Positions 828-51,419 of a DNA stretch of 64,000 bases are shown here, one piece after another (within the stretch, counting starts at the first letter, position 1; every line of letters starts with the position of its first letter). The DNA is taken from contig JACPOZ010000001.1 of the NCBI GenBank assembly GCA_016191235.1, forward strand, positions 6,481 to 70,480. Reading direction: 5' to 3'. Both the position numbers and the translations under genes were made by a program. The notes below the pieces were generated by a model. The model saw nothing but the letters and a program-made list of their open reading frames with translations. It searched no databases and had not been told where the DNA came from. The stretch comes from Gammaproteobacteria bacterium. Its GTDB lineage: Bacteria; Pseudomonadota; Gammaproteobacteria; Ga0077554; Ga007554.

Positions 828-1394
828 TCACGCCTTCGGCAGCGTCACCCCGGTCTGCCCCTGGTATTTGCCACCACGATCCTTGTACGACGTCTCGCAC
901 ACCTCATCGGATTCCAGAAACAACATCTGGGCGACGCCTTCATTGGCATAAATCTTGGCCGGCAGGGTCGTGGTGTTGGAAAACTCCAGGGTCACATGCC
1001 CTTCCCATTCCGGCTCCAGCGGGGTCACGTTGACGATGATGCCGCAGCGCGCATAGGTGGATTTACCCAGACAGATGGTCAGCACACTGCGCGGAATACG
1101 GAAATACTCCACCGTGCGCGCCAGGGCAAAGGAGTTCGGCGGGATGATGCACACATCCGACTGCACATCGACAAAGCTGTTGGCGTCGAAATTTTTGGGA
1201 TCGACTATCGCCGAGTTGATATTGGTGAAAATCTTGAATTCATCCGCGCAACGGACATCGTACCCGTAGCTGGAAGTGCCGTAAGAAATAATCCGGCCCG
1301 CCTCGCGCTCCCGCACCTGACCCGGCTCGAACGGCTCGATCATGCCGTGCTTATCGACCATGCGCCGGATCCATTTATCAGACTTGATACTCAT
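828..1394 (-). CDS. dcd: dCTP deaminase
   Basis: 188 aa, [12 protein letters not shown]...GYDVR...[35 protein letters not shown]; full-length match to my memory of Dcd. Confidence 0.95.
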
Positions 1395-23991: not shown

Positions 23992-25194
23992 TTACAACCG
24001 CCCGCGCTGATCCTGAAACGAAAAACCGGCAAGTGGCATGTCGATGCCGCGCGTCAGCGCAATCACTTTGAATAGCTCACCCATCTCGCTGGACAGGGTC
24101 AGCTTCTTTACCTGCTGCGTCAACGCAAGGTGCTGGCGCGTGTCATCGGGGTTGGATGCCGATGCCATCTCCATCAAACCGCTTCCCAGCAAAAAATAGG
24201 CCTGGGCAGTATACCCCGCGACGGCAAGACCAGCCTCCACGGCGGCCTCGGCCACCGCCGTGAAATCGACGTGCGCGGTGATATCCTGCAAGCCTGTATG
24301 TATCAACGGATCAGGGTGGGCATGGTGGCGGTAATGGCACATCAGCGTGCCACCAGCGCGCTCCGGGTGATAATATTCCCGGCGCGGAAAACCGTAGTCG
24401 ATGATCAGCACCAGCCCCCGCTCCAGCATGGCGGCGATACTGCGCACCCAATCCTCGGCGGCGAGGTTGACTTCCGAGGTGTAGCCGGGAGACAAATCGC
24501 CCAGCTCATCCACGATGGCCGCAATCCGCCCCTCCAGACGCGGATCACTCAACGGCCCACTGCGCCAGGCGAAGCGATCATCCTCCCAGGCCACATAGAG
24601 CTCTTGCGGCCCCTCCTCTTCGATGCGGAACAGATGCACCGGCATGGCGTCCAGCAGTTCGTTGGCCAGCACCACGCCTGTGAACCCGCTTTCAGGCAAA
24701 CGATCCAGCCAGCGGACACGCTCCACAAGGTGAGGTATGCGCCTCTCAAGGGTTTCCCGCTGGCGCTGCCGCAGATCCGCACTCACATCAAGGATAAAAT
24801 AATGATCTGGCAGGCAACCGAGAGCCCCCATCTCAGCCAGCACATCCGCCGCCATCACCCCTGAACCCGCGCCGACCTCCAGGATATCACCACCCCCCAA
24901 GCCAGCCAGCACCTGACAGCACTGCCGCGCCACACAGCGCGAAAACAGCGGGGAAATCTCCGGCGCAGTGACAAAATCCCCCGCCTCACCGAACTTGCGC
25001 GCCCCGGCGCTGTAATAGCCTAAACCGGGGGCATACAGCGCTAGCGCCATGTAGTGGGCGAAGGTGATCTGCCCATCATTGGACTTGATCTCATCGTGGA
25101 TCAGGGCACACAACTGATCACTATGGGCCTGCGCGGCGGCATCCGGCGGGGGTAAGTTATTAAAATTCGGAAGGGTCACAGCATGTCCTGGCAA
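23992..25194 (-). CDS. class I SAM-dependent methyltransferase, MidA/NDUFAF7 (DUF185) family
   Basis: 400 aa. ..ITFAHYMALALYAPGLGYYSAG..FGEAGDFVTAPEISPLF.. and the ILEVGAGSGVMA SAM motif. Apparent TTG start at 25194 with AAGGA 7 nt upstream. Confidence 0.88.
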   Translation of the reverse strand: MPGHAVTLPNFNNLPPPDAAAQAHSDQLCALIHDEIKSNDGQITFAHYMALALYAPGLGYYSAGARKFGEAGDFVTAPEISPLFSRCVARQCCQVLAGLGGGDILEVGAGSGVMAADVLAEMGALGCLPDHYFILDVSADLRQRQRETLERRIPHLVERVRWLDRLPESGFTGVVLANELLDAMPVHLFRIEEEGPQELYVAWEDDRFAWRSGPLSDPRLEGRIAAIVDELGDLSPGYTSEVNLAAEDWVRSIAAMLERGLVLIIDYGFPRREYYHPERAGGTLMCHYRHHAHPDPLIHTGLQDITAHVDFTAVAEAAVEAGLAVAGYTAQAYFLLGSGLMEMASASNPDDTRQHLALTQQVKKLTLSSEMGELFKVIALTRGIDMPLAGFSFQDQRGRL

Positions 25195-25232
25195 TAATGA
25201 ATCCTTGTCATAGTCAGGCAGATACCATCATC

Positions 25233-25460
25233 TTACGATTCAAATTCGCTCCGGGGTACGCCAGACTGCCGAATAATGGACTGAAGCGCGCCGATGCGTA
25301 GCTCTGGATGATTTGGCACCGGCACTGTTATCGTGGAGTCTGGGAATTTTTTCTGCATGACTATGTGGCTACCGCGTTGCCGTACCTCAACGAATCCATG
25401 CGCTGCAAGGATAACGCAGACTTCTTTGCCGGGAAGAATACGTAACTTACCCAACGGCAA
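25233..25460 (-). CDS. hicA: type II toxin HicA (mRNA interferase)
   Basis: 75 aa, ..GKEVCVILAAHGFVEVRQRGSHIVMQK......ITVPVPNHPELRIGALQSIIRQSG. Confidence 0.85.
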   Translation of the reverse strand: MPLGKLRILPGKEVCVILAAHGFVEVRQRGSHIVMQKKFPDSTITVPVPNHPELRIGALQSIIRQSGVPRSEFES

Positions 25461-25668
25461 CCTCTACCCGCGTTACGTACACCTCTTCGTGGAAGCGCTG
25501 TTTGATTTCCTCGGCGGAGGCTGATTCGAAGAAGAGCTCAATAGCCTCTCGCAGGTTATTACGCGCTTCTTCGATGGTATTGCCCTGGCTTGCAATGTCC
25601 AACTCAGGGCAAAGCGAAACATAGCCATCCGCCTCCCGTTCGATGATTGCTGTAAGCTGTTTTTGCAT
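25447..25668 (-). CDS. hicB: type II antitoxin HicB
   Basis: MQKQLTAIIEREADGYVSLCPELDIASQGNTIEEARNNLREAIELFFES.. Start at ATG 25668. Overlaps hicA by 14 nt. Confidence 0.85.
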   Translation of the reverse strand: MQKQLTAIIEREADGYVSLCPELDIASQGNTIEEARNNLREAIELFFESASAEEIKQRFHEEVYVTRVEVAVG

Positions 25669-25778
25669 GATATTTACTCTTGAGCTACGATTTTGGCACC
25701 TGACCACAAGGATTCCAATACGACGTGCAGCATGAATATACGCCTGATAGCCCCCGCCTGTACACTCGCCAAAGCAAG

Positions 25779-25868
25779 GTAGGTCGAGTTAGCGCAGCGT
25801 AACCCGACATCGACGCATGCTGCATCCAGAGCACGTCGGGTTACGCCCTTTGGGCTAACCCGACCTAC
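25779..25868. repeat. REP-like palindromic element, family A
   Basis: gtaggtcgagttagcgcagcgtaacccgac....gtcgggttacgccctttgggctaacccgacctac. Confidence 0.75.
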
Positions 25869-25884
25869 ACGTTTTGTATTATGC

Positions 25885-26316
25885 ATTTGGCGCCTTATAT
25901 CTGGGCCAGAGTTAACTCGCAGATTTTGCCGAAGAGCTTGAAATATTAGGGTGTCGGATTTTTTTACAAGCACCGAACCCAAGAAAAAATTTTAAATAAT
26001 CATTTAAAATCAATGTTATATACAAATTATGCATTATCAAAACCTTATATGCCCCTTTAATTTGGAGGCCATTTTGTCGAATTTTTTTACAGTCTTGCAC
26101 AAAAATCTACCAGAGGAATTGCTTTCAATGGCGGTAAAATAATTTAATACCTTGTAATTAAAGGTAATTAAATTTTTATATTCTCTACTGGTATGAATAA
26201 TGCGTTTTGAATAATGCTTTTAATGATTGGTAAGGACGATGCGATACAGGAAAGTATAGAAATCGTGTCTCCCCATTTATTTGACCCGGTATAATAAATC
26301 TTTAGAGGTTAGCGAC
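25885..26316 (+). repeat. conserved AT-rich PEP-CTERM leader, copy A
   Basis: Aligns by eye almost base-for-base with 29299-29754 (copy C). From about 25960 onward it also aligns with 27623-28010 (copy B). Confidence 0.9.
26189..26203 (+). promoter_or_regulatory. candidate sigma-54 (-24/-12) promoter, leader A
   Basis: TGGTATGAATAATGC has GG and GC at the canonical 12-nt register (consensus TGGCAC-N5-TTGC). It lies ~110 nt upstream of ATG 26317. Confidence 0.6.
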
Positions 26317-27153
26317 ATGAATAACTCACTGAAAAAAATAGCAGTTTGTTCTGCAATTGTGGCGGCTTTGGGTAATACCTCGGTCTTGGCGGCACCTCTT
26401 ACCCTGAATGTAGTTGACTCTGTTAATGTCGCGAGCGCTTTCGGCTTGGCTTTCGACGGCACCAACATCTGGTACACAACTGGCTTCCAGACAACGGGAC
26501 GTATCAACCAAAATGTGGCTGGCATGGCGGCATTCGGTGCGACGTTTAGCGCACCGGTATGGTCTGCAATGGCATGGGCAGGCTCCAATCTTGCGTTTGC
26601 GCAAGGCAATCAAGTTTATTACCGTTCGACGACCGGCGCTGACATGGGGAGCCTGACCATTGGCCGATCTGATGGCCTCATTGACGGGTTCGACATTGAA
26701 GGTGGGAAAATGTACTGGTCGCCAGACGTTAGTTATGCGGCGCAATTGAACGCCACCACGGGTGCCGATGAAGGGATTATCCTCAATCCTCCAGGTGGCT
26801 TGTCTGGCATTGAGCGTGTGATTTCAGGCGCCAATGATTGGCTTTTTGTGGTCAACGACGCCTCTAGCCCACGCACCATCTGTCGCACACTGACCAGCGC
26901 ACCAAACCATAATTTCCCCGCTGGTGAGTGCGTCGCACTGCCTAATTCGCGCTATGAGGACCTCGCTTTTGATGGCCGTTACCTCTATGCTGCCGACTAT
27001 TATGGCGGTCGGATTGACAAAATCGACCTGTTGCTTGATGGTGGCTCTATTTTCGTTCCGCCATCTGGAAATGTGCCTGAGCCTGCTTCCCTTGCCCTGC
27101 TGGGTCTAGGCTTGGTCGGGATGGTTGCGGCACGCCGTCGCAAGACAGCCTAA
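26317..27153 (+). CDS. PEP-CTERM sorting-domain protein 1 (beta-propeller-like passenger)
   Basis: Signal peptide MNNSLKKIAVCSAIVAALGNTSVLA/AP. C-terminal VPEPASLALLGLGLVGMVAARRRKTA (PEP motif, TM, basic tail). Start trimmed to ATG 26317 (GAGG upstream). Confidence 0.85.
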   Translation: MNNSLKKIAVCSAIVAALGNTSVLAAPLTLNVVDSVNVASAFGLAFDGTNIWYTTGFQTTGRINQNVAGMAAFGATFSAPVWSAMAWAGSNLAFAQGNQVYYRSTTGADMGSLTIGRSDGLIDGFDIEGGKMYWSPDVSYAAQLNATTGADEGIILNPPGGLSGIERVISGANDWLFVVNDASSPRTICRTLTSAPNHNFPAGECVALPNSRYEDLAFDGRYLYAADYYGGRIDKIDLLLDGGSIFVPPSGNVPEPASLALLGLGLVGMVAARRRKTA

Positions 27154-27199
27154 GCATTTCGCTTTACTCACAATTTAGTTTCACAAGTAACACATGATT

Positions 27200-27226
27200 G
27201 CCCACCCTTTGCGGTGGGCTTTTTTG
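27200..27226 (+). terminator. rho-independent terminator
   Basis: gcccacc-ctttgc-ggtgggc followed by tttttt. Confidence 0.8.
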
Positions 27227-27260
27227 TTCTGCCGCCACACTTTTTCACCCCCCTCGCCCC

Positions 27261-27591
27261 CGAACCCACGCCCACCTCCAGAATATCGCCGCCCCCCCCA
27301 AGCCCGCCAGCACCTGCCGGCACTGCCGCGCCACGCAGCGCGAAAACAGCGGGGAGATCTCCGGCGCGGCGACAAAATCCCTCGCCTCACCAAATTTGCA
27401 CGCCCCGGCGCTGTAGTATCCGAGTCCCGGCGCATACAGCGCTAGCGCCATGTAGCGGGCGAAGGTGATCTGACCATCGTCGAACTTGATTTCGGCGCGG
27501 ATCAGGGCGTGCAGCCGATCACTGTGGGCCTGCGTGGCGGCATCCGGCCGGGGTAAGTTATCAAGATTCGGCAGAGTCACGGCATGTCCTG
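27261..27591 (-). pseudogene. duplicated, diverged 5' fragment of the MidA-type methyltransferase gene
   Basis: DNA aligns with 24862-25200. Translation ..GHAVTLPNLDNLPRPDAATQAHSDRLHALIRAEIKFDDGQITFARYMALALYAPGLGYYSAGACKFGEARDFVAAPEISPLFSRCVARQC.. parallels the first ~105 aa of the intact gene, then loses frame at a C-run. Confidence 0.85.
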
Positions 27592-27622
27592 AAAATATAG
27601 CGCCAAAACTCACATAAGTCAT

Positions 27623-28010
27623 TGAAATATCAGGGGGTCAGATTTTTTTACAAGGATCGAACCCAAGTAAAAACTTAAAATAATCATTTAAAATCAATGT
27701 TATATACAAATTATGCATCATCAAAACCTTATATGCCCCTTTAATTTGGGGGCCATTTTGTCGAATTTTTTTACAGTCTTGCACAAAGATCTACCAGAGG
27801 AATTGCTTTCAATGGCGGTGAAATAATTTAATACCTTGTAATTAAAGGCAATTAAATTTTTATATTCTCTACTGGCATGAATAATGCTTTTAATGATTGG
27901 TAAGGGCGATGCGATATGGGAAGTATAGAAATCGTATCTCCCCATTTATTTACCTTATGACCCCATTTACCTTACCCCTAGCACAAAACCTAACAAAGGA
28001 AGGACTTCCC
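27623..28010 (+). repeat. conserved AT-rich PEP-CTERM leader, copy B
   Basis: See copy A. Lacks the first ~80 bp and the 14-nt tandem duplication present in A and C. Confidence 0.9.
27873..27887 (+). promoter_or_regulatory. candidate sigma-54 (-24/-12) promoter, leader B
   Basis: TGGCATGAATAATGC, the closest of the three copies to the consensus. Confidence 0.65.
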
Positions 28011-29078
28011 ATGAACAATAAACTTACTGCAGCCGCTGGCGGATTGGCGCTGTTATGGGCCGGCGGCGCTCTTGCGGCACCGATCGCGTTTAATCCCTTT
28101 GTCACCAGCACCAACCTTAGCACCGCCATGGGCAGCACCTCCACGATAGGATTCGCCTATGCCGGGAATAAATTCGTCGGCTCTCTTTATTTCAACAACC
28201 AACTCTATAAAACCGACTTGAATGGGGGAAATGTCCAGGCGTTCGGACCGGCATTACCCATCTCCAGCGGCTCGGCCGGAGAGATCTACGTCTCCAGTTC
28301 ATTGGGGCTGGGCGGGTTCGCATCGCGTGACGTCTTCGCCGGCTCGCAGTCTTTCGGCACGGTTTACCAAATTTCCAATGACGGCACGTCAAGCTCGACA
28401 TTCGCCACCGGCTTGAGCGGCGGGGTGCGCGGTATCGCCTTCGACCCTTACGGTTTGTACGGCAACGATATGTTCGTCACCACCAGCACCGGCAATGTGT
28501 ACCGCATCAACAGCGCGGGCTCGCCCACGTTGCTTGCCAATGTCGGCGGCGACGCGGAAGGCTTGGATTTCACTCCTCAGGCATTCGGTCCCATTCCCGC
28601 CGGCACCCTGGTAGTGGTCTCCGAAGGAACGGGGCGCCTCAACGCCATTACGCCAACGGGTACGAAAACCGATATAGGGCTGCAGTTCAGCGCCCCTGAA
28701 ATGCTCAGCTTCGTCCCCCTCAATCTGGGCATCAGCGGCAATCCGCTCGAGGGATTTTATGCCGCCAACTATCCGGTCAATGTCATCAAGGCGGCGGCCA
28801 GCGATTTTGTTTCCTATTTGGGCGACGCCATCATCACCGAAGAGATCAGCCACAATGTCTATCAGATAGAGTGGAACGGCACGGCATTCACCAAAACCCT
28901 CGTCGGCACCTACCCGAACCAGCCGGAAGACGGCATTTTCGTCACCGCCGCCATCTTGAATCCCGGATGCACCCTCACCAACACCTGCGGTGGCACGGTA
29001 CCTGAGCCTGCCTCGCTGGCCCTGATGGGGCTGGGTCTTGCGGGATTGGGCTTTAGCCGCAAGAAGAAAAAGATATAA
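28011..29078 (+). CDS. PEP-CTERM sorting-domain protein 2 (beta-propeller-like passenger)
   Basis: MNNKLTAAAGGLALLWAGGALA/AP signal. C-terminal VPEPASLALMGLGLAGLGFSRKKKKI. Start at ATG 28011 after AAGGAAGGA. Confidence 0.85.
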   Translation: MNNKLTAAAGGLALLWAGGALAAPIAFNPFVTSTNLSTAMGSTSTIGFAYAGNKFVGSLYFNNQLYKTDLNGGNVQAFGPALPISSGSAGEIYVSSSLGLGGFASRDVFAGSQSFGTVYQISNDGTSSSTFATGLSGGVRGIAFDPYGLYGNDMFVTTSTGNVYRINSAGSPTLLANVGGDAEGLDFTPQAFGPIPAGTLVVVSEGTGRLNAITPTGTKTDIGLQFSAPEMLSFVPLNLGISGNPLEGFYAANYPVNVIKAAASDFVSYLGDAIITEEISHNVYQIEWNGTAFTKTLVGTYPNQPEDGIFVTAAILNPGCTLTNTCGGTVPEPASLALMGLGLAGLGFSRKKKKI

Positions 29079-29101
29079 CTCGAAAGTCGCAGCGTCATGA
29101 A

Positions 29102-29129
29102 CCCCGTCCCCGAGACGGGGTTTTATTTT
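29102..29129 (+). terminator. rho-independent terminator
   Basis: ccccgtc-cccga-gacgggg followed by ttttatttt. Confidence 0.8.
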
Positions 29130-29298
29130 GGGAACGGCACTAATATGCCCTGTCTCCCAAAGTAAATCCGGCAAGCACACAGCGGGTTTACCGTATCCGC
29201 GGCTTTACCCGGCAAGCAGGGCACTTCCCATGGATAACGCACCGCTCGCCGCAACACAGCGCCACCGTCATGGCCTCGGCGGGCACCGGCACGTCCTG

Positions 29299-29754
29299 GC
29301 AACTTTGTATTATGCATTTGGCGCCTTATCTGGGCCAAAGTTTACTCGCAGATTTTGCCGAAGAGCTTGAAATATTAAGGGTGTCGGATTTCTTTACAAG
29401 CACCGAACCCAAGTAAAAACTAAAAATAATCATATAAAATCAATGTTATATACAATTTATGCATTATCAAAACCTTATATACCCCTTGAATTTGGAGGCC
29501 ATTTTGTCGAATTTTTTTACAGTCTTGCACAAAGATCTACCAGAGAAACTGCTTTCAATGGCGGTGAAATAATTTAATGCCTTGTAATTAAAGGTAATTA
29601 AATTTTTATATTCTCTACTGGTATGAATAATGCGTTTTGAATAATGCTTTCAATGATTGGTAAGGGCGATGCGATATAGGGAAGTATAGAAATCGTGCCT
29701 GACCCCATTTATTAATTTGACCCAATTTATTAAATTTTTACCTTGGAGAACAAC
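29299..29754 (+). repeat. conserved AT-rich PEP-CTERM leader, copy C
   Basis: See copy A. Confidence 0.9.
29619..29633 (+). promoter_or_regulatory. candidate sigma-54 (-24/-12) promoter, leader C
   Basis: TGGTATGAATAATGC, identical to copy A. Confidence 0.6.
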
Positions 29755-30483
29755 ATGAAACTCAACAAACTCGCTATCACCACCGCGTTGGCCGCCACGC
29801 TGATCGCCAGCAGCAGCGCTTTCGCCGTTCCCATTACACCTACCGTTTCCTTCGCTCCTGGTACTTCGCTGAATACCACTGCCATAAGCACCTTCACGAC
29901 AAATGGAGCGCAAATGGCGGGTACGTCGGTGACTGCCTATTTCAGCGGAGGCTCAAGTGAAACCGTTTCCTGGGCTGCCGGTATCGTCCCCGCTGGGGCC
30001 GCAACTGGCACTAATTGGTCTCTGAGTTTTGCGGGTACCACAACCTTTAGCCCCTTCTGGGAATTGCTGACTACCGGCAACTTGACTACTGCCATCACAC
30101 GACTGGTCATCGATGGTCAACCTGGCGATACGATTTTTGACACCATTCTGGATCCGGAAACTACGCCCGGTTCTGCGCGGGGCACGGCTTTCTCGGCTGT
30201 CGATGGCCCCACCGGCCTGAGCGTGGCCGCCACCTATAGAAACCAAGTGGCGCTTAACGGTACGGTTTATGGCGATCTATTTACCGTGCTGGATATCGGC
30301 TTTTCCACGGCAACCGGCGCTGCTGGCGGATTGGGAGCAGACAGCCGACTGATTTTTACCGCTGACACGGACAATACTGCTATCCAGGGTGACCTCAACC
30401 CCATCCCAGAGCCCGCCTCCCTGGCACTGATGGGCCTTGGCTTGGCTGGTTTGGGTTTTGCTCGCCGTCGCAAGACAGCTTAA
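29755..30483 (+). CDS. PEP-CTERM sorting-domain protein 3 (Thr/Ala/Gly-rich passenger)
   Basis: MKLNKLAITTALAATLIASSSAFA/VP signal. C-terminal IPEPASLALMGLGLAGLGFARRRKTA. GGAGA upstream of ATG 29755. Confidence 0.85.
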   Translation: MKLNKLAITTALAATLIASSSAFAVPITPTVSFAPGTSLNTTAISTFTTNGAQMAGTSVTAYFSGGSSETVSWAAGIVPAGAATGTNWSLSFAGTTTFSPFWELLTTGNLTTAITRLVIDGQPGDTIFDTILDPETTPGSARGTAFSAVDGPTGLSVAATYRNQVALNGTVYGDLFTVLDIGFSTATGAAGGLGADSRLIFTADTDNTAIQGDLNPIPEPASLALMGLGLAGLGFARRRKTA

Positions 30484-30530
30484 TCAATTTCCCTTTACTC
30501 ACAATAAGTTCCACAAATAGCGCATGATTG

Positions 30531-30556
30531 CCCACCCCTTGCGGGTGGGTTTTTTT
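30531..30556 (+). terminator. rho-independent terminator (paralogous to 27200-27226)
   Basis: cccaccc-cttgc-gggtggg followed by ttttttt. The flanking sequence is also shared with the 3' flank of PEP-CTERM gene 1. Confidence 0.8.
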
Positions 30557-30709
30557 GTTATGCCGCCGCACTTTTTATCTCCCCCACCCCCCCGCCGTTT
30601 TTTCACCCTTGATGAAGCGTGCGCTGTGCGCACGAAACCGCTGGACGGATCATTCTCTAGTCTCTACGCTTGCATCATGCGGACTTCCCCAACATTGAGG
30701 TACTCTCCC

Positions 30710-31216
30710 ATGAAACTACTCATCCTCCGCCACGCCCCCGCCGAAGACCGGGAAATATTCGCCACCACCGGCGAGCCAGATGAATCGCGGCCATTGACAG
30801 ACATTGGCCGAAAAAAAATGCGTAAAGCGACGCGTGGGCTTCATGGCGTGGTCCCTCAGATTGATCTTCTGGCCACCAGCCCGCTGATACGCGCTGCGGA
30901 AACGGCGCGGATCATTGGCGACGCCTACGGCGGGCTGACGGTCGCTGAAGCGCAGGAACTCGCGCCTGGACACGCCCCGGAATCGGTATTGTCCTGGCTC
31001 AAGACTCAAAAGGGGCATGACACCGTCGCCGTGGTGGGCCATGAGCCGGATTTGGGCCATCTGGTGAGCTGGCTGCTATCAGGTAAAAAACAGCCCTTTA
31101 TCGAACTCAAAAAAGGAGCGGCTTGCTTGATCGAGTTCCCGAACGGCATCGTGCAAGGCAAGGCGATACTGATCTGGGCGCTTGCCCCGTCCCAGCTCCG
31201 CGCACTCGGAGGATAG
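30710..31216 (+). CDS. sixA: phosphohistidine phosphatase SixA
   Basis: MKLLILRHAPAE... (RHG-type motif RHA), ..LLATSPLIRAAETARII..VAVVGHEPDLGHLVSWLL. Start trimmed to ATG 30710. Confidence 0.85.
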   Translation: MKLLILRHAPAEDREIFATTGEPDESRPLTDIGRKKMRKATRGLHGVVPQIDLLATSPLIRAAETARIIGDAYGGLTVAEAQELAPGHAPESVLSWLKTQKGHDTVAVVGHEPDLGHLVSWLLSGKKQPFIELKKGAACLIEFPNGIVQGKAILIWALAPSQLRALGG

Positions 31217-32472: not shown

Positions 32473-34011
32473 ATGTCTACCCCTCCAGAAGAGATAAAAA
32501 CCATCGCTGACGTGCCGAATAACGCGCCACCACAAATCGTCGCCGCCATTGATCTCGGCTCCACCAGCTTTCACCTGGTGGTGGCACGCATCATGAACGG
32601 CCAGATCCATGTCGTCGACCGTTTACGCGAAATGGTGGTGCTGGCCTCGGGACTCGATCAGAAAAACCAGCTGGGAGAGCCAGCCCAGAAACGCGCCCTG
32701 GAATGCCTGGCGCGCTTCGGTCAACGTCTGCGCGACATGCCGCCGGGCAGTGTGCGCGCGGTAGGTACCAATACCCTGCGTGCCGCCTGCAATGTCGGCG
32801 ACTTTCTGGAGCGCGCGCAAAACGCACTGGGGCATCCTATCGAGATCGTCGCCGGCCGCGAAGAGGCGCGGCTTATCTACCTGGGGGTAGCGCACAGCCT
32901 GCCGTTGCAGAAGGGACGGCGCCTGGTGGCGGATATCGGCGGCGGCAGCACCGAGCTGATCATTGGCGAGGGTTTTGAGCCACTGCAAATGGAAAGCCTG
33001 CACATGGGCTGCGTGAACATGAGCCGCGCCCATTTCCCCGATGGCGCGATCCGCGCCCGCGACATGCGCCGCGCGGAAATCGCCGCGCAGCTTGAGCTTC
33101 AGCCGATTCAGGCGCAATACCGCCGGCTCGGCTGGCAAAGCGCCGTCGGCGCATCGGGCACCATCCGCGCCGTGGACAGGATCGTACGCGACAAGGGATG
33201 GAGCGACAAAGGCATCACGCGGCCGGCATTGCGCAAACTCCGCGACGCGCTGATCGACGCGGGACATATACAACGCCTGCGCCTGGATGGACTGAGCAGC
33301 GAGCGCATCGCGGTGCTGCCCGGCGGCGTGGCGATCCTGCTTGCGGCAATGGAGACGCTGGACATCAAGTGCGTACACGTTGCCGACGGCGCACTGCGCG
33401 AGGGGCTGTTATATGACCTGATGGGCAGGATACAGCATGAAGACGTGCGTGAAACCAGCATCCAGGCGATGATGACGCGTTACCATGTGGACACTGTCCA
33501 GGCCACCCGCGTCGAACGCGCCGCACTCGCCTGCCTCTCCCAGGTGGCGGGTGACTGGGGCATCGCCAGCGAGGAACATGCCCACTTATTGAGCTGGGCC
33601 GCCCGCTTGCATGAGATTGGCCTGGCGGTCGCCCACAACCAGTACCACAAACATGGCGCCTATCTGGTGGAAAATTCCGATCTGCCGGGATTCTCACGCC
33701 AGGAGCAGGCACGGCTGGCGGGGTTGATCCGTGGTCACCGGCGCAAGTTTCCCATGGCGATATTCATGCAACTGCCCGCCTCTCAAATAGATCAGGAGTG
33801 GCGTTTGTGCATCCTGCTGCGTCTTGCGGTGTTGCTGCACCGCAGCCGCGCCGACGCCGCATTGCCGGATTTCAGGCTGACGGTGGGGCGGCGCTCCGTG
33901 CGCATTCAGTTCCCTGCCGCATGGCTGACCCACCACCCCCTCACCGAGACCGAGCTGGCCGGAGAAGCCGCCTATCTGGCGGCGGCCAACATCAAACTGG
34001 AATTTGCTTAA
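32473..34011 (+). CDS. ppx: exopolyphosphatase / Ppx-GppA family phosphatase
   Basis: ..VAAIDLGSTSFHLVVARI...RAVGTNTLR...DIGGGSTELI.. (ASKHA motifs) and a C-terminal HD-like region. Alternative GTG start at 32431. Confidence 0.9.
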   Translation: MSTPPEEIKTIADVPNNAPPQIVAAIDLGSTSFHLVVARIMNGQIHVVDRLREMVVLASGLDQKNQLGEPAQKRALECLARFGQRLRDMPPGSVRAVGTNTLRAACNVGDFLERAQNALGHPIEIVAGREEARLIYLGVAHSLPLQKGRRLVADIGGGSTELIIGEGFEPLQMESLHMGCVNMSRAHFPDGAIRARDMRRAEIAAQLELQPIQAQYRRLGWQSAVGASGTIRAVDRIVRDKGWSDKGITRPALRKLRDALIDAGHIQRLRLDGLSSERIAVLPGGVAILLAAMETLDIKCVHVADGALREGLLYDLMGRIQHEDVRETSIQAMMTRYHVDTVQATRVERAALACLSQVAGDWGIASEEHAHLLSWAARLHEIGLAVAHNQYHKHGAYLVENSDLPGFSRQEQARLAGLIRGHRRKFPMAIFMQLPASQIDQEWRLCILLRLAVLLHRSRADAALPDFRLTVGRRSVRIQFPAAWLTHHPLTETELAGEAAYLAAANIKLEFA

Positions 34012-35341
34012 AACGGACACCATCGTGCCATCATCCACCCCGACGCTGCGGCGCGAGCCCTCTCTAGGCTCCACGGAAGACGATATTTTCGACGCCCCGC
34101 CATTGCACGAGCAACACCTGCACATGCTGCGCTATCTTGCGCCGTACAGCGCATTGCTGCTGGTGATCGGCGGCAAAGAGAGCGGCAAAACCGCCCTGCT
34201 GGAGCAACTCATCGCCTCGGCCTCCGCATCATGGCGCGTGTGCCGCATCGACGCCACGCCCATGCTGGACGAGGATGACATCCTCGCCACACTCAGCTCG
34301 GAATTCGGCCTGCGCGTTAGCAAGACACAAGACCGCGAGGCACGCCTGCGACTGTTGGGCGAACGCCTGCGCGAGATGAGGTTGGACGCGCATCGCCCGA
34401 TACTGGCGATAGACAACGCCGATCAACTGCGTGAAGCTGCGCTCCTGTTGCTGGCGCGCATTCTTGAAGCGGGCGACGACAGCCAGGGATTACTGACCAT
34501 CATCCTGTTTTGCCAGCCGCAGATCGAACCCATGCTCGCCACCCCCGCACTTGCACCCTTGCGGCAACACATGGCGCATGCTTTCTACCTTCCTGCTGCG
34601 TCCAGCAATCAGAAATCCTCGGGCCAGCCATCAAAAACGGGAAGGAAGGCGCTATGGCTAATGGGCATCGCAATTACCCTGGCGGTAGCTGTATTGCTAT
34701 TGCAGAACCAGATCAACACCCCGCCCGACAAAAGCCCCTCCTCGCCCACATCGACGGCAACCATCGCGCAAGGCAAGGCCATGCCGCTGGAGATCCCGCC
34801 ATTACACCCCACTCCCTCCACGCAACAGAGAGAGGCGGCACTGGCGCAGCTTGCGGATGTGGGTGTGCAGGCCAAGGAGGCTGGGCTCAGCGTCAACAAC
34901 GCGCTGCCCCTGCCCACGCCTGAACCCATGCCGGCACTGCCCGGCGAGGAAGCGCCCGCCAATATTATCCCTTCAGCGCAGCCAGATCACCCCACCGTTG
35001 CAGCGCCTACAAAAAAAGAAACCACCGAACCGGCAGCCGTACTCAAAAGCGAATCCTGGCTGCTCGCGCAGAACCCCGCCCACTACACCCTCCAACTTAT
35101 GTCCATGAAAACAGAAGCGCCATTAAAGGAATTTACCGCAAGCCATCCGCTCACTGCGGAGACCATTTACTTCCGCGCAAACCGCCTCGGCGAGGCACGG
35201 CACGTCTTGCTCTCCGGCATTTATCCTACCCGCGCCCAAGCCGAACAGGCGGCAAAGGACGTTGAAAAACTGACCGGCATCACCCCCTGGATACGCAGCA
35301 TCGGCAGTATCCAGGACGACCTGAAAAATCCCAGGCAGTAG
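34004..35341 (+). CDS. ExeA-like AAA ATPase / single-TM / SPOR-domain protein (DamX-like architecture)
   Basis: Walker A VIGGKESGKTALLEQL, Walker B ILAIDNADQL, TM ALWLMGIAITLAVAVLLL, Pro-rich linker, C-terminal SPOR-like ..HYTLQLMSMKTEAPLKEF....YFRANRLGEARHVLLSGIYPTRAQAEQAAKDV. Start uncertain (TTG 34004 or GTG 34025). Confidence 0.78.
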   Translation: MLKTDTIVPSSTPTLRREPSLGSTEDDIFDAPPLHEQHLHMLRYLAPYSALLLVIGGKESGKTALLEQLIASASASWRVCRIDATPMLDEDDILATLSSEFGLRVSKTQDREARLRLLGERLREMRLDAHRPILAIDNADQLREAALLLLARILEAGDDSQGLLTIILFCQPQIEPMLATPALAPLRQHMAHAFYLPAASSNQKSSGQPSKTGRKALWLMGIAITLAVAVLLLQNQINTPPDKSPSSPTSTATIAQGKAMPLEIPPLHPTPSTQQREAALAQLADVGVQAKEAGLSVNNALPLPTPEPMPALPGEEAPANIIPSAQPDHPTVAAPTKKETTEPAAVLKSESWLLAQNPAHYTLQLMSMKTEAPLKEFTASHPLTAETIYFRANRLGEARHVLLSGIYPTRAQAEQAAKDVEKLTGITPWIRSIGSIQDDLKNPRQ

Positions 35342-47419: not shown

Positions 47420-48211
47420 TCAAGCCGCTTCTTTCTTGTGCCGCGCATACAAGAACTGCAACACTTCACCGCGCAAATGGACATAACGCGCGTCCTCGGC
47501 CAACGCCAGGCGATCACGCGGTCGCGGAAGATTGACCTCCAGCACCTCACCTATCGTTGCCGCAGGCCCGTTAGTCATCATGACGATGCGGTCGGACAAC
47601 AGCACTGCCTCATCCACGTCATGCGTCACCATGATCGCAGTGCTGCCTAATGCCGCGACAATACGCATCAACTCATCCTGGAGATGGGCACGCGTAAGCG
47701 CATCCAGCGCACCAAAAGGCTCATCAAGCAGCAACACCTTGGGCTGCATGGAGAGCGCCCGCGCAATGCCGACACGCTGCTTCATGCCACCCGAGATCTC
47801 ATGCGGCAGCTTGTACATGGCGTGCCCCAGTCCAACCAATTCCAACGCCTCCTTTGTGCGTTTTTTCAGGTTCGCCTTATCCTCCTTGCGGCCAAACACG
47901 CGCTCCACTGCAAGATAAACATTGTCAAAGCAGGTCAACCAGGGCAGCAGCGAATGATTTTGAAATACCACAGCACGATCCGGGCCGGGACCTGCAATCT
48001 CACGGCCTGCGCAAAACAAGGCCCCGCCGGTGGCATCTATCAACCCCGCCACCAGATTAAGCAATGTTGATTTTCCGCAACCTGAATGCCCAATGATGGA
48101 AATGAACTCACCCTGATCAATGCCCAAATCGACATCCTTTAGCGCAACAAATTTTCCTTTTTTTGTTTCAAAAGCCATTTGAACTTTTTCTACCTGAACA
48201 TATTTATTCAT
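47420..48211 (-). CDS. nrtC: nitrate/sulfonate/bicarbonate-type ABC transporter ATP-binding protein
   Basis: Walker A GHSGCGKSTLLNL, signature ISGGMKQRVGIARAL, Walker B LLLDEPFGALD. Confidence 0.88.
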   Translation of the reverse strand: MNKYVQVEKVQMAFETKKGKFVALKDVDLGIDQGEFISIIGHSGCGKSTLLNLVAGLIDATGGALFCAGREIAGPGPDRAVVFQNHSLLPWLTCFDNVYLAVERVFGRKEDKANLKKRTKEALELVGLGHAMYKLPHEISGGMKQRVGIARALSMQPKVLLLDEPFGALDALTRAHLQDELMRIVAALGSTAIMVTHDVDEAVLLSDRIVMMTNGPAATIGEVLEVNLPRPRDRLALAEDARYVHLRGEVLQFLYARHKKEAA

Positions 48212-48238
48212 GACTAGGTCACCTAATATTACAAATGA

Positions 48239-49144
48239 TCAATATTCAAACCGTTTTGCCACAAGCAAAAGCGCCTGTTCAAGAAGCAAACCTATGATGC
48301 CAACCACGAAAATGGCGATGATGATGTGCTCGACATTGAGGTTGTTCCATTCATCCCACACCCAGAAGCCAATCCCCACACCGCCGGTCAGCATCTCCGC
48401 CGCGACAATCACCAGCCAGGCCACACCTATCGCCAGACGCACACCGGTCATCATGTACGGCAATACCGCCGGGAATAGTATCTTGGTGAAGATCTTCCAC
48501 TCTGACAGATTAAGAACACGCGCCACGTTCATGTAATCCTGTGGAACCTTGCTCACGCCCACAGCGGTATTGATGATCATCGGCCAGATGCTGGAGATGA
48601 AAATCACCCAAATGGCAGCGGGCTGCGCTTCTTTAAACACCAGCAGACCGATAGGTAACCACGCCAACGGAGATACTGGACGCAGCAAGCTGATAATGGG
48701 AGACGCCATGCCGCTGAAGAAGGCGAAACGCCCGATCATGAAACCCAGCGGAATACCGATCAATGCCGCCAAGCCAAAGCCCATGCCGACACGCTCCAGA
48801 GAATTTAGAATATTCCAGCCGATACCCTTGTCATTCGGACCATTGTCATAGAATGGATCGCTGAACAACTCAACTGCTGAGGCCCAGGTCTTGATAGGGC
48901 CAGGAAGGTTTTCGCTGCGCTGCGCGATTAACTCCCAGAGCATCACGAACAGCATCAGTCCGAGTATCGGCGGCAGGATACGCTTTACAAAAAACTCTAA
49001 ACCCGCCTTAACATTTATCAGCTTAGACTTGACCTCCGAGACAACGGGTTTTTCCGCAGCCACAGGCTCATGTATTGTCTTCTGCACGACAATCTCCGAC
49101 AAATCCTCACCTGTTCGAACCTGCTTGATGCTTACTACAGTCAT
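48239..49144 (-). CDS. nrtB: nitrate ABC transporter permease
   Basis: 301 aa, multi-TM, BPD-transporter EAA-like loop ..VSKVPQDYMNVARVLNLSEWKIFTKILFPA.. Confidence 0.88.
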   Translation of the reverse strand: MTVVSIKQVRTGEDLSEIVVQKTIHEPVAAEKPVVSEVKSKLINVKAGLEFFVKRILPPILGLMLFVMLWELIAQRSENLPGPIKTWASAVELFSDPFYDNGPNDKGIGWNILNSLERVGMGFGLAALIGIPLGFMIGRFAFFSGMASPIISLLRPVSPLAWLPIGLLVFKEAQPAAIWVIFISSIWPMIINTAVGVSKVPQDYMNVARVLNLSEWKIFTKILFPAVLPYMMTGVRLAIGVAWLVIVAAEMLTGGVGIGFWVWDEWNNLNVEHIIIAIFVVGIIGLLLEQALLLVAKRFEY

Positions 49145-49155
49145 GGCGGTCTACC

Positions 49156-50454
49156 TCATACCTTGATCTTGAAACTGTTGGCATATTTCTTCGGATCCTT
49201 GCCATCCCATACGACGCCATCAATCAATTTGCTGACGCGCATCACATCTTTTGGCACCGGCACCTTTACTTGGGCTGCGGCCTCTTTGTAGAGGTCGATC
49301 TGGTTTACCTTTTTTGCGACAGCCAGATAATCAGGATCGTCTTTGAGCAATTTCCAGCGTTTATGTTGCGTCATAAACCACATGCCATCCGACAGATAGG
49401 GGAAATTGACAGCACCATCGTTGTAGAACTTCATGTAGTCGGGATCCTTCCACTTCCTGCCCATACCATTGTCGTAATCGCCGAGAAAGCGGCCCTCGAT
49501 AACCTCTTCCGGCGCATTAACATACGACTTGCTGGAAATGGTCTTGGCTACACCGGGCCGGTTGGCAAGGGTGTCGATATACTTCGACGCCTCCAGCACC
49601 GCCATGAGCATGGCGCGTGTGGTGTTGGGATATTTCTGTGTAAATTCTAGGGTAGTACCCAGCACTTTTTCCGGATGATCTTTCCAGATATCCTGCGTGG
49701 TCGCTGCAGTAAAGCCTATCTTGTCGTAAATAGCCCGGGCGTTCCACGGTTCGCCCACGCAATAGCCATCCATATTTCCGATGCGCATATTGGCAACCAT
49801 TTGCGGCGGTGGCACGGTGATGGTTTTTACATCGGTCAGCGGGTGTATACCGTAGGATGCCAGCCAGTAATAAAGCCACATCGCGTGGGTGCCCGTCGGG
49901 AAAGTCTGGGCAAAGGTATATTCGCGTTTTTCACCCTCGATCTTATCAATCAGTTTCTTCAGCGATGCGCCATCGACAACGCCCTTGGCCTTCGACTGAT
50001 TCGACAAAGTAATGGCCTGCCCATTGTTATTCAGGCACATCAACACAGCCATATCCTTTTGCTGACCGCCGATACCCATTTGCACGCCATACATCAAGCC
50101 ATATAACACATGTGCCGCGTCAAGCTCTCCATTCACTATCTTGTCACGCACTCCAGCCCAGCTTGCTTCTTTTGAAACTGTCACATCCAAACCGTATTTC
50201 TTGTACAACCCCAGCTCATCGGCCATCACCACGCTGGCGCAATCTGTGAGTGGAATAAAGCCAATCTTGAGTGTCTTTTTTTCCGGCGCATCGGAGCCTG
50301 CAGCCCACGCACCAGTACGAATTCCTGGGGAAATCATGCTCATCAGGGCAAAACCACCCAATACCGCACCTCCAGTTTTTAGAAAATTGCGGCGCGATAT
50401 TCCATCTGTTTTAATAACACCGCTTTTTTTCTTGAATTCATTATCATCACTCAT
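49156..50454 (-). CDS. nrtA: nitrate ABC transporter substrate-binding protein (Tat signal)
   Basis: Twin-arginine leader ..GISRRNFLKTGGAVLGGFALMS.., NrtA/NMT1-like body. Start trimmed to ATG 50454 (GGAGA upstream), because the ORF-track extension covers the leader/terminator. Confidence 0.86.
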   Translation of the reverse strand: MSDDNEFKKKSGVIKTDGISRRNFLKTGGAVLGGFALMSMISPGIRTGAWAAGSDAPEKKTLKIGFIPLTDCASVVMADELGLYKKYGLDVTVSKEASWAGVRDKIVNGELDAAHVLYGLMYGVQMGIGGQQKDMAVLMCLNNNGQAITLSNQSKAKGVVDGASLKKLIDKIEGEKREYTFAQTFPTGTHAMWLYYWLASYGIHPLTDVKTITVPPPQMVANMRIGNMDGYCVGEPWNARAIYDKIGFTAATTQDIWKDHPEKVLGTTLEFTQKYPNTTRAMLMAVLEASKYIDTLANRPGVAKTISSKSYVNAPEEVIEGRFLGDYDNGMGRKWKDPDYMKFYNDGAVNFPYLSDGMWFMTQHKRWKLLKDDPDYLAVAKKVNQIDLYKEAAAQVKVPVPKDVMRVSKLIDGVVWDGKDPKKYANSFKIKV

Positions 50455-50482
50455 CTTCACTTTCTCCCATTTTCGAATGTAC

Positions 50483-50564
50483 AAAAAAAAGGCGCCCATC
50501 TTCACAAGAAGATTTCCTGTGAAAATGGACGCCGTTGTCCGCATGGCAAACCGCCGTTGGCTTG
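50483..50564 (-). promoter_or_regulatory. ANTAR-type antitermination leader: two AACGGC hexaloop hairpins overlapping an intrinsic terminator
   Basis: RNA (minus strand): CAAGCC-AACGGC-GGTTTG ccatgc GGAC-AACGGC-GTCC. The second hairpin shares GGCGTCC with a 16-bp terminator stem GGCGTCCATTTTCACA/TGTGAAGATGGGCGCC, followed by U8, ~28 nt upstream of the nrtA ATG. Confidence 0.8.
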
Positions 50565-50608
50565 CCCGTGTTTGTGATGTCAACCCGCCATTGGGTCGAC
50601 TCACTTTA

Positions 50609-50774: not shown

Positions 50775-51347
50775 TTATGCCAGAATATCCGCAGCCGTAT
50801 TTATGCTGTTGGCCACGTCAATCATGCGCATGTTACGATCCATCGCCATCTTGCGCAGCAAGCGAAAAGCCTCATCTTCCGTGCACTTGCGTTGCTTCAT
50901 CACCACCCCCTTGGCACGCTCTATGTGCTTGCGCTCCGCCAGGGTTTCAGTCGTTTTTTCCAGATCGCGCTTGAGCGCTTGATGCTCGTCAAACCTGACC
51001 ATCGCAACATCAATAATGGGTTTGATGCGTTCGATGCTTAGCCCGCCTACCACATAGGCGCTTACGCCCGCCTTCACTGCGGCACGGATTTTTTCACTAT
51101 CGCCATCATGCGTAAACATCACTATAGGCCGTGGCTGATCACGGCTGATCACACATATATGTTCTAAGGTATCTCGATCCGGTGATTCCGTATCGATAAT
51201 AACCACATCGGGCTGTAATTCGCGGACACGCACATACAGGTTATCACCGGGATCAACTTGCGCGACAACGCTATGCCCGGCATCCTTGAATGCCTGAAGA
51301 AGCAAGGCGTTTCGCTGCGGGTCTTCATCTACTAGCATGATGCGCAT
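50775..51347 (-). CDS. nasT: ANTAR-domain response regulator (NasT/AmiR type)
   Basis: 190 aa. Receiver domain MRIMLVDED..VIIDTESPDRD.., C-terminal ANTAR ..LAERKHIERAKGVVMKQRKCTEDEAFRLLRKMAMDRNMRMIDVA. Confidence 0.88.
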   Translation of the reverse strand: MRIMLVDEDPQRNALLLQAFKDAGHSVVAQVDPGDNLYVRVRELQPDVVIIDTESPDRDTLEHICVISRDQPRPIVMFTHDGDSEKIRAAVKAGVSAYVVGGLSIERIKPIIDVAMVRFDEHQALKRDLEKTTETLAERKHIERAKGVVMKQRKCTEDEAFRLLRKMAMDRNMRMIDVANSINTAADILA

Positions 51348-51404: not shown

Positions 51405-51419
51405 GCAATCAACATGCCA
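51405..51419 (-). promoter_or_regulatory. sigma-54 promoter for nasT-nrtABC-porin
   Basis: Minus strand reads TGGCATGTTGATTGC(T), matching TGGCAC-N5-TTGCW at all key positions. It lies ~55 nt upstream of the nasT ATG. Confidence 0.75.

Follow-up and report, generated by a model that had tools for sequence, protein, structure and literature searches.

Probable sigma-54 enhancer-promoter regions in near-identical leaders of three tandem PEP-CTERM genes

In a 64-kb stretch of gammaproteobacterial DNA (the window), three consecutive genes for PEP-CTERM proteins are each preceded by one of three AT-rich leaders of 350–440 bp. We consider it probable (roughly 80%) that these leaders are enhancer-dependent sigma-54 promoter regions of the kind that Haft et al. 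(2006; PMC1569441) reported, each belonging to a monocistronic gene, and that they were recently duplicated or converted within a chromosomal slot of changing gene content.

Leaders A (25873–26316), B (27598–28010), and C (29304–29754) lie on the forward strand, as do their genes. By self-BLASTN, A and C are 92.0% identical over 439 alignment columns (25873–26304 and 29304–29740, E 3e-180), A and B 90.4% over 345 columns (25938–26282 and 27622–27951), and B and C 87.7% over 366 columns (27622–27969 and 29367–29729). The same search found no further copy in the 64-kb window. The leaders have a G+C content of 32–34%, compared with 54–58% in the genes and 56.5% across the whole window. The initial annotation had described near-identical leaders before three PEP-CTERM genes, which these alignments (88–92% identity) confirm; the starts that it gave for them were approximate, lying within ~25 nucleotides of the homology boundaries measured here.

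Genes 1 (26317–27153, 278 amino acids), 2 (28011–29078, 355 amino acids), and 3 (29755–30483, 242 amino acids) each stand alone behind one leader, and all three products score above the curated cut-offs of the PEP-CTERM domain models TIGR02595 (29.6 bits for gene 1, cut-off 16) and PF07589. Three terminator-like hairpins follow them, at 27200–27219 (with a T-run), 29099–29123, and 30530–30550. As had been proposed, the passengers show no detectable relationship, with no pair reaching an E value of 1e-3 in composition-corrected BLASTP; when the correction is omitted, significant alignment is confined to the C-terminal tails. We found no Pfam domain in, and no PDB relative of, any of the three passengers. 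Genes 1 and 3 also have a 3' module in common, as previously noted, that comprises the PEP-CTERM coding end, 3' UTR, terminator, and flank (27076–27262 and 30406–30594; 80.5% identity over 190 columns in self-BLASTN, and 86.5% over the 74 nucleotides of 3' UTR and terminator). The limits of homology fall at the edges of the modules: leader homology stops ~13 nucleotides before the ATG, and 3' homology starts at the PEP codons.

A 17-nucleotide box, TGTCGRATTTYTTTACA, occurs twice in each leader, the copies being spaced 123 bp apart. The window contains six such boxes, all within the three leaders, where 0.04 would be expected by chance. In leader A the distal copy (TGTCGGATTTTTTTACA, 25952–25968), a putative PrsR-type activator site, fits the description of Haft motif 1, and the proximal copy (TGTCGAATTTTTTTACA) is at 26075–26091. 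The boxes of leader B are at 27636–27652 (one mismatch) and 27759–27775, and those of leader C at 29382–29398 and 29505–29521. In all three leaders a predicted -24/-12 sigma-54 element (TGGYATGAATAATGC, with GG at -24 and GC at -12) lies 97 nucleotides past the proximal box: TGGTATGAATAATGCG at 26189–26204 in A, TGGCATGAATAATGCT at 27873–27888 in B, and its counterpart at 29619–29634 in C. The predicted transcription start sites (~26215, ~27899, and ~29645) leave 5' UTRs of ~100–112 nucleotides to the ATG. Between the enhancer and the promoter lies an AT-rich tract (TAATACCTTGTAATTAAAG, 26145–26163 in A, with equivalents at 27829–27847 in B and 29575–29593 in C) that is retained as TAAYANNWTGTAWTNAAAG in related leaders; judged by eye it resembles the IHF consensus YAANNNNTTGATW and may bind this protein.

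Haft et al. described the region upstream of proteobacterial PEP-CTERM genes as containing motif 1, a proposed PrsR site of 17 nucleotides that ends in TTTACA and is sometimes repeated, followed by a spacer of 32–92 nucleotides and motif 2, a sigma-54 site, with the start codon 23–221 nucleotides further on; the genes form single-gene operons within large intergenic regions (PMC1569441). From its length, TTTACA end, repetition, position, and association with PEP-CTERM genes, we infer that the box is motif 1. The leaders resemble the published region in having a 17-nucleotide box with this end (twice here), the -24 GG and -12 GC, a long intergenic region before a single-gene operon, and a 5' UTR within the reported range. 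However, the spacer between box and promoter is ~95–97 nucleotides (97, or ~94–95 between the 17-nucleotide motifs) rather than at most 92; whole leaders of 350–440 bp, not motifs alone, are 88–92% identical among three tandem genes; and this lineage has additional conserved islands (CATTGAAAWAT, AAAATCAAT, CTTATATRCC, and the block in the 5' UTR). The occurrence of the published motifs in all three leaders supports the earlier proposal of coordinated regulation, and as regulatory DNA common to PEP-CTERM genes they should provide coordinated control.

A scan for the box followed by TGGYAYR, with spacers of 80–110 nucleotides only, identified at least 119 loci in other genomes, mostly in Beta- and Gammaproteobacteria. 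Among the matches listed, GC is found at -12, a position not set by the scan pattern, in 93 of 119 loci (~7 expected by chance), and a PEP-CTERM tail closes at least 56 of the 102 first downstream ORFs that are complete. The spacings between box and promoter among the matches listed peak near 85, 96, and 105 nucleotides, which suggests helical phasing; the 97 nucleotides of the window fall in the second peak. A second upstream box is present at 17 of 115 loci and in none of 104 control stretches. Counting the window and other genomes, we found nine leaders of the window's type, all in fixed orientation and at fixed distance to the start codon of a PEP-CTERM gene, each with a different passenger; none precedes an unrelated gene, as a generic repeat might.

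Related arrangements have been described. The pepA gene of Aquincola tertiaricarbonis RN12 has an RpoN1-dependent, mapped -24/-12 promoter (TGGCAC...CTGCTT) and adjoins prsT, the intergenic region being given as nearly 85 nucleotides (PMC9850573). Like pepA and the PrsK/PrsR-controlled floc genes of Zoogloea, the genes described here encode PEP-CTERM proteins and have a -24/-12 element, a predicted upstream enhancer, and their own terminator; gene 3 also weakly resembles floc_PepA over its full length (26 bits, where the cut-off is 80). In contrast to pepA, they are situated among housekeeping genes with no prs or xrt gene nearby, have leaders of 410–450 nucleotides, and are known here from sequence alone. 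Classical promoters of the NtrC family, such as glnAp2 and nifH, combine tandem upstream activator sites with an IHF bend. The leaders likewise have two candidate activator sites more than 100 nucleotides upstream, an AT-rich IHF-like tract, a -24/-12 element, and apparent helical phasing in the family. However, the box is asymmetric and T-rich rather than an NtrC dyad, and its two copies are 123 bp apart rather than adjacent.

The near-identity of the leaders had been attributed to selection on a long element, an explanation that the following comparisons do not support. A fragment of ~350 bp from the 5' end of a methyltransferase gene was copied alongside the leader (27248–27597, minus strand, abutting leader B; 84.9% identical to 24849–25196 by self-BLASTN), and its junction with leader B matches that between methyltransferase gene and leader in the relative L121. 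At the same locus in relatives, leaders, including orthologous ones, are only 46–55% identical and retain short motifs alone. Two leaders at one locus (L121/L122) share 54–55% identity, those before orthologues of another PEP-CTERM gene, X, are 46–50% identical for X proteins of 70–72% identity, and the leader of the gene 1 orthologue in L068 (71% identity over 132 amino acids) shares only the proximal box, IHF-like tract, and promoter. Leader function would therefore need only short islands, and we take the identity of ~90% over more than 300 bp to reflect recent local duplication or homogenization rather than selection on 350–440 bp. The three leaders differ from one another in a star-like pattern, with ~2–4% change per lineage. 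Their divergence is about half that of the methyltransferase fragment and the 3' module; thus some purifying selection or later homogenization across the whole leader is likely. Simple recent tandem duplication, which the initial annotation had named as the competing explanation, does not account for unalignable coding cores between flanks of 80–92% identity, so some replacement or conversion step is needed.

The slot is bordered on the left by a gene for a MidA-type SAM-dependent methyltransferase (Methyltransf_28, PF02636, E 1.6e-70; 23992–25194, minus strand), whose orthologues occupy this position in L121 and L128–L131, and on the right by a sixA-like histidine phosphatase gene (30710–31216, forward strand; PF00300; TIGR00249, E 3.6e-20, 72.4 bits, just short of the cut-off of 74.5), which is syntenic in L128–L131. 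The set of PEP-CTERM genes in this slot changes from one related genome to the next: L128, L129, and L130 have a single cassette with gene X, L131 has one encoding a different protein of 285 amino acids (p131), L121/L122 have X and a second gene, Y, and the window has genes 1–3 and no X. A toxin-antitoxin pair on the minus strand (25233–25707), consisting of hicA (25233–25460; HicA_toxin, E 2.9e-18) and a hicB-like gene (25447–25707; weak HicB_lk match), is an insertion that separates the methyltransferase gene from leader A; relatives lack it at this position, and L126, the closest relative, has a ParD/RHH-type ORF in its place. A REP-like nested palindrome (25779–25868, inverted repeats I2 and I4) directly precedes leader A.

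This turnover fits the earlier suggestion of cassette-like exchange. In its strong form, the leader together with the start of the signal peptide, and likewise the PEP-CTERM tail, 3' UTR, and terminator, would act as homology arms, through which dispersed paralogues exchange passengers into and out of the slot by homologous recombination or gene conversion and so diversify the cell surface. Unalignable cores between arms of 80–92% identity, boundaries that match the modules, and the varied occupancy of one slot all agree with such exchange, as do the swapped toxin-antitoxin module and the foreign ORF remnant with which leaders A and C begin. Another mosaic pair, formed by Y (L122) and Z (L123), agrees with it too: the tails are 97–100% identical over 33–37 amino acids, the signal peptides 67% identical, and the cores unrelated. 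We nevertheless regard a dedicated system of this kind as unlikely: we saw neither donor copies nor recombination sites nor a recombinase, all of the variation is between species and on an evolutionary time scale rather than between strains or within a population, and conservation of tail and leader is also expected from function alone. Surface-protein variation by silent cassettes is well known from pilE/pilS of Neisseria and vlsE of Borrelia. Conserved flanks around variable surface-protein cores make these systems an analogy at most; all three copies in the window have a promoter, start codon, and terminator and none is silent, their cores are unrelated folds rather than variants of one protein, and we found no evidence of ongoing exchange.

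It is more doubtful still that the transcribed part of the leader is the target of selection as a structured cis-regulatory RNA, either riboswitch-like or a protein-binding 5' UTR. A block of 60 nucleotides just past the promoter (TAATGATTGGTAAGG...GTATAGAAATCGTGTCT...CCCCATTTATT, 26221–26282 in A) is kept in six leaders (A, B, C, L122 leader 2, L009, and L075), which precede different genes and come from four genomes, one of them represented by a contig binned as Polaromonas; it contains a small hairpin predicted by RNAalifold. However, this hairpin has 10 pairs with one compensatory change and a covariation term of -0.69 kcal/mol, and the minimum free energy z-scores (+0.65, -0.08, +0.87, -0.99, and -1.53) give no support to a structured leader RNA as the regulatory DNA or RNA element that had been proposed. 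Rfam gave no match up to an E value of 1 except two chance-level ones elsewhere in the region, a covariance model of the block found no other instance in ~1 Mb of PEP-CTERM loci, and ~340 of the 440 nucleotides of each leader lie upstream of the predicted start site, as DNA-level enhancer and promoter. The idea that a mobile or selfish repeat, derived from a MITE or an IS element, lies upstream of these genes by chance is largely refuted: the leader is AT-rich and repeated, breaks short-read assemblies, and in A and C begins with a relic of 40–60 nucleotides from the 3' end of an ORF still intact in L126, but terminal inverted repeats and target duplications were not found, it has no copies elsewhere in the window, and it combines a complete enhancer-promoter architecture with a fixed placement before PEP-CTERM genes.

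Returning to the sigma-54 promoter reading, neither exosortase nor PrsK nor PrsR was found among the window ORFs scanned (most of the large ones), in keeping with the earlier view of these genes as satellites of a system encoded elsewhere. An NtrC-family activator from that system (PrsR, phosphorylated by PrsK) would bind both boxes, at ~124–140 and 247–263 nucleotides upstream of the predicted start site, and bending of the IHF-like tract would loop it onto sigma-54 holoenzyme at TGGYATG-N4-ATGC. Transcription would then run from ~100–112 nucleotides before the ATG to the intrinsic terminator, and the signal peptide would direct export of the product, whose PEP-CTERM tail would be the site of processing by an exosortase. 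Recent segmental duplication, gene conversion, or both within the slot probably account for the close match among the leaders and between genes 1 and 3 at their 3' ends. The regulatory design has already been described and the case is mostly an ordinary one, in which genes 1–3 would be co-regulated members of one regulon.

The three PEP-CTERM genes of the window, genes 1 (26317–27153), 2 (28011–29078) and 3 (29755–30483), are each preceded by an AT-rich leader (A, 25873–26316; B, 27598–28010; C, 29304–29754) with a G+C content of 32–34%, versus 56.5% for the window. Self-alignment of the window gives 92.0% identity between A and C over 439 columns (25873–26304 and 29304–29740), 90.4% between A and B over 345 columns (25938–26282 and 27622–27951) and 87.7% between B and C over 366 columns, with E-values of 1e-128 to 3e-180, which confirms the almost base-for-base alignment described in the initial annotation. 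The same self-alignment shows no fourth leader copy elsewhere in the 64 kb. Identical proteins are known only from three short Logan contigs (SRR12113392), each of which ends inside the leaders, and a metagenome scan with a leader-specific pattern returned only three loci.

Each leader carries two copies, 123 bp apart, of a 17-nt box (TGTCGRATTTYTTTACA) that is a putative PrsR-type activator site. The distal and proximal copies are located at 25952–25968 and 26075–26091 in A, at 27636–27652 (with one mismatch) and 27759–27775 in B, and at 29382–29398 and 29505–29521 in C; six matches in the window compare with 0.04 expected by chance. Exactly 97 nt 3' of the proximal box we find TGGTATGAATAATGC (A and C) or TGGCATGAATAATGC (B), whose GG and GC doublets are spaced as in a sigma-54 -24/-12 promoter in all three leaders. 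Between box and promoter lies an AT-rich tract, TAATACCTTGTAATTAAAG, which is conserved in related leaders and by eye resembles the IHF consensus. Transcription is predicted to start ~12 nt past the -12 C, with a predicted 5' UTR of roughly 100–112 nt, and the ATG follows about 112–123 nt downstream of the -12 element. The -12 region is tandemly duplicated over 14 nt in A (26194–26221) and C (29624–29651) (TGAATAATGCGTTT / TGAATAATGCTTTT) and is single in B; in A and C the duplication moves the promoter 14 nt away from a conserved 5' UTR block. A scan for sigma-70 promoters found no enrichment (six sites versus 5.2 expected). One further sigma-54-like site, TGGCATGTTGATTGC, is present at 51405–51419 on the minus strand, 5' of an ORF (50775–51347) and nitrate ABC-transporter genes (47420–50604). 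This fourth site is without a PEP-CTERM-type box, and its regulon is thus probably another one, for instance that of nitrogen control.

The regulatory architecture of the leaders has already been described. PEP-CTERM genes mostly form operons of one gene, preceded by large intergenic regions, and in Proteobacteria a first 17-nt motif, which ends 3' in TTTACA and is sometimes repeated, is followed by a spacer of 32–92 nt (mean 62.8) and a second 17-nt motif with the sigma-54 consensus of -24 GG and -12 GC, the start codon lying 23–221 nt after motif 2 (PMC1569441). Across genomes, the signature follows the phylogenetic profile of PrsR, an NtrC-type activator, and of PrsK and PrsT (PMC1569441). 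Experiments on pepA, a PEP-CTERM gene of Aquincola, have demonstrated that it depends on RpoN and has a -24/-12 promoter (PMC9850573). Compared by description, the box of the window agrees with motif 1 in its 17-nt length, TTTACA end and repetition. The -24 GG and -12 GC of motif 2 occur downstream of the box in all three leaders, the distance to the ATG falls within 23–221 nt, and the genes are single-gene PEP-CTERM units with their own terminators. At the sequence level, the leaders have every published feature save the spacer, which at 97 nt from the box end to TGG (~94–95 nt between the 17-nt motifs) is just above the maximum of 92 nt.

We scanned one genome per species for the pattern box-N80-110-TGGYAYR, leaving free the -12 GC, the downstream gene and any second box, and obtained at least 119 loci. 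Those listed are mostly from Beta- and Gammaproteobacteria, for example Nitrosomonas, Nitrosospira, Thiobacillus, Accumulibacter and Duganella. GC is present at -12 in 93 of the 119 listed loci, where about 7 are expected by chance. Among the matches listed, 102 have a complete first ORF downstream, and at least 56 of these ORFs end in a PEP-CTERM tail, as recognized by a crude regular expression; a second box is found 20–240 nt upstream in 17 of 115 listed loci versus none of 104 control stretches. Within the scanned range of 80–110 nt, the box-to--24 spacing at the listed loci (L002–L120, from the genome scan) peaks near 85, 96 and 105 nt. The spacing in the window falls in the middle peak (~96), and phased spacings of this kind occur upstream of many PEP-CTERM genes. 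This clustering suggests helical phasing of a PEP-CTERM enhancer. Given the -12 GC, the PEP-CTERM tails, the second boxes and the spacing clusters, we regard the leaders as genuine members of the PEP-CTERM sigma-54/PrsR regulatory family.

All three ORFs exceed the curated cut-offs of the PEP-CTERM domain models (TIGR02595, 26.9–29.6 bits with a cut-off of 16; PF07589, 32.7–34.9 with a cut-off of 20.7), and the matches stop one to three residues short of the C-terminus. Judged by eye, each translation begins with a signal peptide, and an intrinsic-terminator-like hairpin is located 3' of each ORF. The passengers, or variable core domains, of genes 1–3 show no pairwise similarity at E 1e-3 in composition-corrected BLASTP, and searches of Pfam and the PDB gave no domain and no sequence relative for any of them; in uncorrected BLASTP the tails alone align. 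BLASTP, domain models and translations thus agree with the earlier description of unrelated passengers joined to a shared tail and signal-peptide style. Genes 1 and 2 both look beta-propeller-like by eye, and a common fold is possible. The reported common 3' end of genes 1 and 3 is likewise present, as a module (27076–27262 and 30406–30594) of 80.5% identity that spans the PEP-CTERM coding end, the 3' UTR, the terminator and about 40 nt further, the 74 nt of UTR and terminator being 86.5% identical. Similarity of the kind seen between leaders was looked for in the coding regions and is absent from their cores.

Among the window ORFs scanned, none was found to encode PrsK, PrsR, PrsT, sigma-54 or an exosortase. 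An AAA ATPase gene (34004–35341, plus strand) has a weak partial match to TIGR03015, the XrtA/PEP-CTERM system-associated ATPase (59 bits, where the cut-off is 324). In relatives, orthologues of this gene (AAA_22 plus SPOR) are syntenic irrespective of which cassettes are present, which makes a link to the PEP-CTERM system improbable.

On three grounds, the near-identity of the leaders points to a recent common origin and not to selection over their whole length: a co-duplicated gene fragment, star-like differences among the copies, and leader divergence in relatives. The fragment is a 350-bp piece from the 5' end of the Methyltransf_28 gene (24849–25196; gene 23992–25194, minus strand), duplicated with 85% identity at 27248–27597, where it adjoins leader B. 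This junction is ancestral, because the same gene-to-leader junction exists in a relative, and a segmental duplication thus extended from within the methyltransferase gene to a point shortly beyond the terminator of a PEP-CTERM gene. The fragment lies in a frame (27245–27622, minus strand) that is open for 125 aa and free of indels over the first ~100 codons. When an outgroup was used to polarize the substitutions, 20 were counted for the branch of the fragment and 12 for that of the gene; about half of each are synonymous, so the fragment may be young or evolving not fully neutrally. The three leaders differ from one another in a star-like pattern, each lineage having changed by roughly 2–4%. 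In relatives, the leaders are far more diverged. Metagenome contigs L121 and L122 encode the orthologous methyltransferase (73% aa) and carry, at the equivalent locus, two cassettes whose leaders are 54–55% identical to each other. An orthologous PEP-CTERM gene, X, in L121, L128, L129 and L130 is 70–72% identical at the amino acid level and has leaders 46–50% identical, which retain both boxes, the promoter and an ATCAAT island. The leader of a gene 1 orthologue (71% aa) at L068 resembles leader A only in the proximal box, the IHF-like tract and the promoter. Leader function thus requires no more than such islands and not 350–440 bp. The 3' module and the co-duplicated piece of the methyltransferase gene have diverged about twice as much as A, B and C, so some constraint or later homogenization of the leaders is likely. 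The initial annotation had argued for selection on a long regulatory DNA or RNA element. The published PEP-CTERM motifs uphold the regulatory part of that proposal, but selection on a long element is not borne out, given the co-duplicated fragment, the 46–55% identity of relatives' leaders and the weak support for an RNA. The leaders are best explained as the known PrsR/sigma-54 region of PEP-CTERM genes, triplicated recently in a variable slot.

Leaders nearest to the A/B/C type are the second leader of L122 (65–67%) and that of a gammaproteobacterial MAG contig, L009 (63–64%), with partial likeness in L012, L123 and L075. The L075 leader (1100–1303, minus strand), on a contig binned as Polaromonas (Betaproteobacteria), is 71% identical to those of the window over 129 nt and also matches in the 5' UTR block; it could reflect horizontal transfer of the cassette or a binning error. 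Islands conserved across related leaders include CATTGAAAWAT immediately 5' of the distal box, AAAATCAAT, CTTATATRCC 21 nt upstream of the proximal box, and, where the 5' UTR starts, a block of 60 nt. This block could conceivably be an RNA element. RNAalifold predicts a hairpin of 10 pairs from six sequences, three of them near-identical; however, just one of the 10 pairs is compensatory. In addition, MFE z-scores range from -1.5 to +0.9, an Rfam search at E up to 1 over 25000–31000 gave two chance-level matches, both outside the leaders, and a covariance model of the block recovered its own training sequences alone in about 1 Mb of loci. All nine A/B/C-type leaders found, in the window and in other genomes, stand before genes that exceed the PEP-CTERM cut-off and encode nine different passengers, so among these nine the leader neither precedes unrelated genes nor behaves as a generic repeat. 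A MITE or IS-derived repeat was rejected because terminal inverted repeats are absent, and context and orientation are fixed in all nine cases.

Bounded by the methyltransferase gene and the sixA-like gene (30710–31216), the slot differs in content among relatives. L128, L129 and L130 have X alone, L131 has a single PEP-CTERM gene of 285 aa that is unrelated, and L121/L122 have X plus a second gene, Y. In the window the slot holds genes 1, 2 and 3 without X, together with the gene fragment and a hicA/hicB pair followed by a REP-like nested palindrome (25779–25868); pair and palindrome (25233–25868) separate the methyltransferase gene from leader A. The closest relative, L126 (95% nucleotide identity over the flank), has a ParD/RHH-type ORF in place of hicAB (region 145–831). 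It adjoins the 3' end of an ORF (L126 85–144, ending in YLNFHRPCHFPTEYTDKKGRITLAQIRRQMHNAKLPGHA and the stop) that is intact in L126 and whose last 40–60 nt correspond, with 93% identity, to 5' extensions of leaders A (25873–25914) and C (29284–29342). These extensions may be the relic of an inserted element; a transposase label for the ORF is not supportable, as a Pfam match is absent. In L123 a hicB-like gene lies beside a leader of the A/B/C type.

Homology among the window cassettes ends about 13 nt 5' of the ATG and restarts at the PEP codons. The proteins Y (L122 1869–2795) and Z (L123 56–910, minus strand), from two different records, have similar signal peptides and unrelated cores, and share a C-terminal stretch of 33–37 aa that is 97–100% identical (CG.AGQPNCPVPEPTVLPLLGIGLLGMVAAMRRKKA). 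The differing slot contents and the mosaic structure of Y, Z and the window cassettes argue that turnover and mosaicism of the slot are real. All slot variation seen is between species, and neither donor copies nor a recombinase nor variants within a population were seen in the window or the relatives' loci. The cassette idea of the initial annotation is thus partly right, and passenger exchange by leader–tail recombination may reasonably be proposed. We consider it unlikely (a probability of about 0.15) that the PEP-CTERM genes of this lineage are exchangeable cassettes recombining at the slot, with a possible further control layer in the 5' UTR block. In such a scheme, two portable units would act as homology arms, one made up of the leader and the beginning of the signal peptide, the other of tail, 3' UTR and terminator; recombination would swap the passenger domain at the fixed methyltransferase–sixA slot, and the lineage-specific 5' UTR block could provide additional control after transcription, as a second layer.

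The leaders do not open a new class of system. They provide a well-resolved case of PEP-CTERM gene multiplication by segmental duplication in a conserved slot whose content differs among close relatives, and the PEP-CTERM regulon signature proves to be rediscoverable from raw sequence alone. The practical gain is modest: precise coordinates of boxes, promoters and predicted starts for tests of PrsR and sigma-54 in an uncultured gammaproteobacterium. The extra conserved islands may bind further regulators. If the cassette scheme were true, the organism would possess a co-regulated yet rapidly changing set of exosortase-sorted surface proteins.
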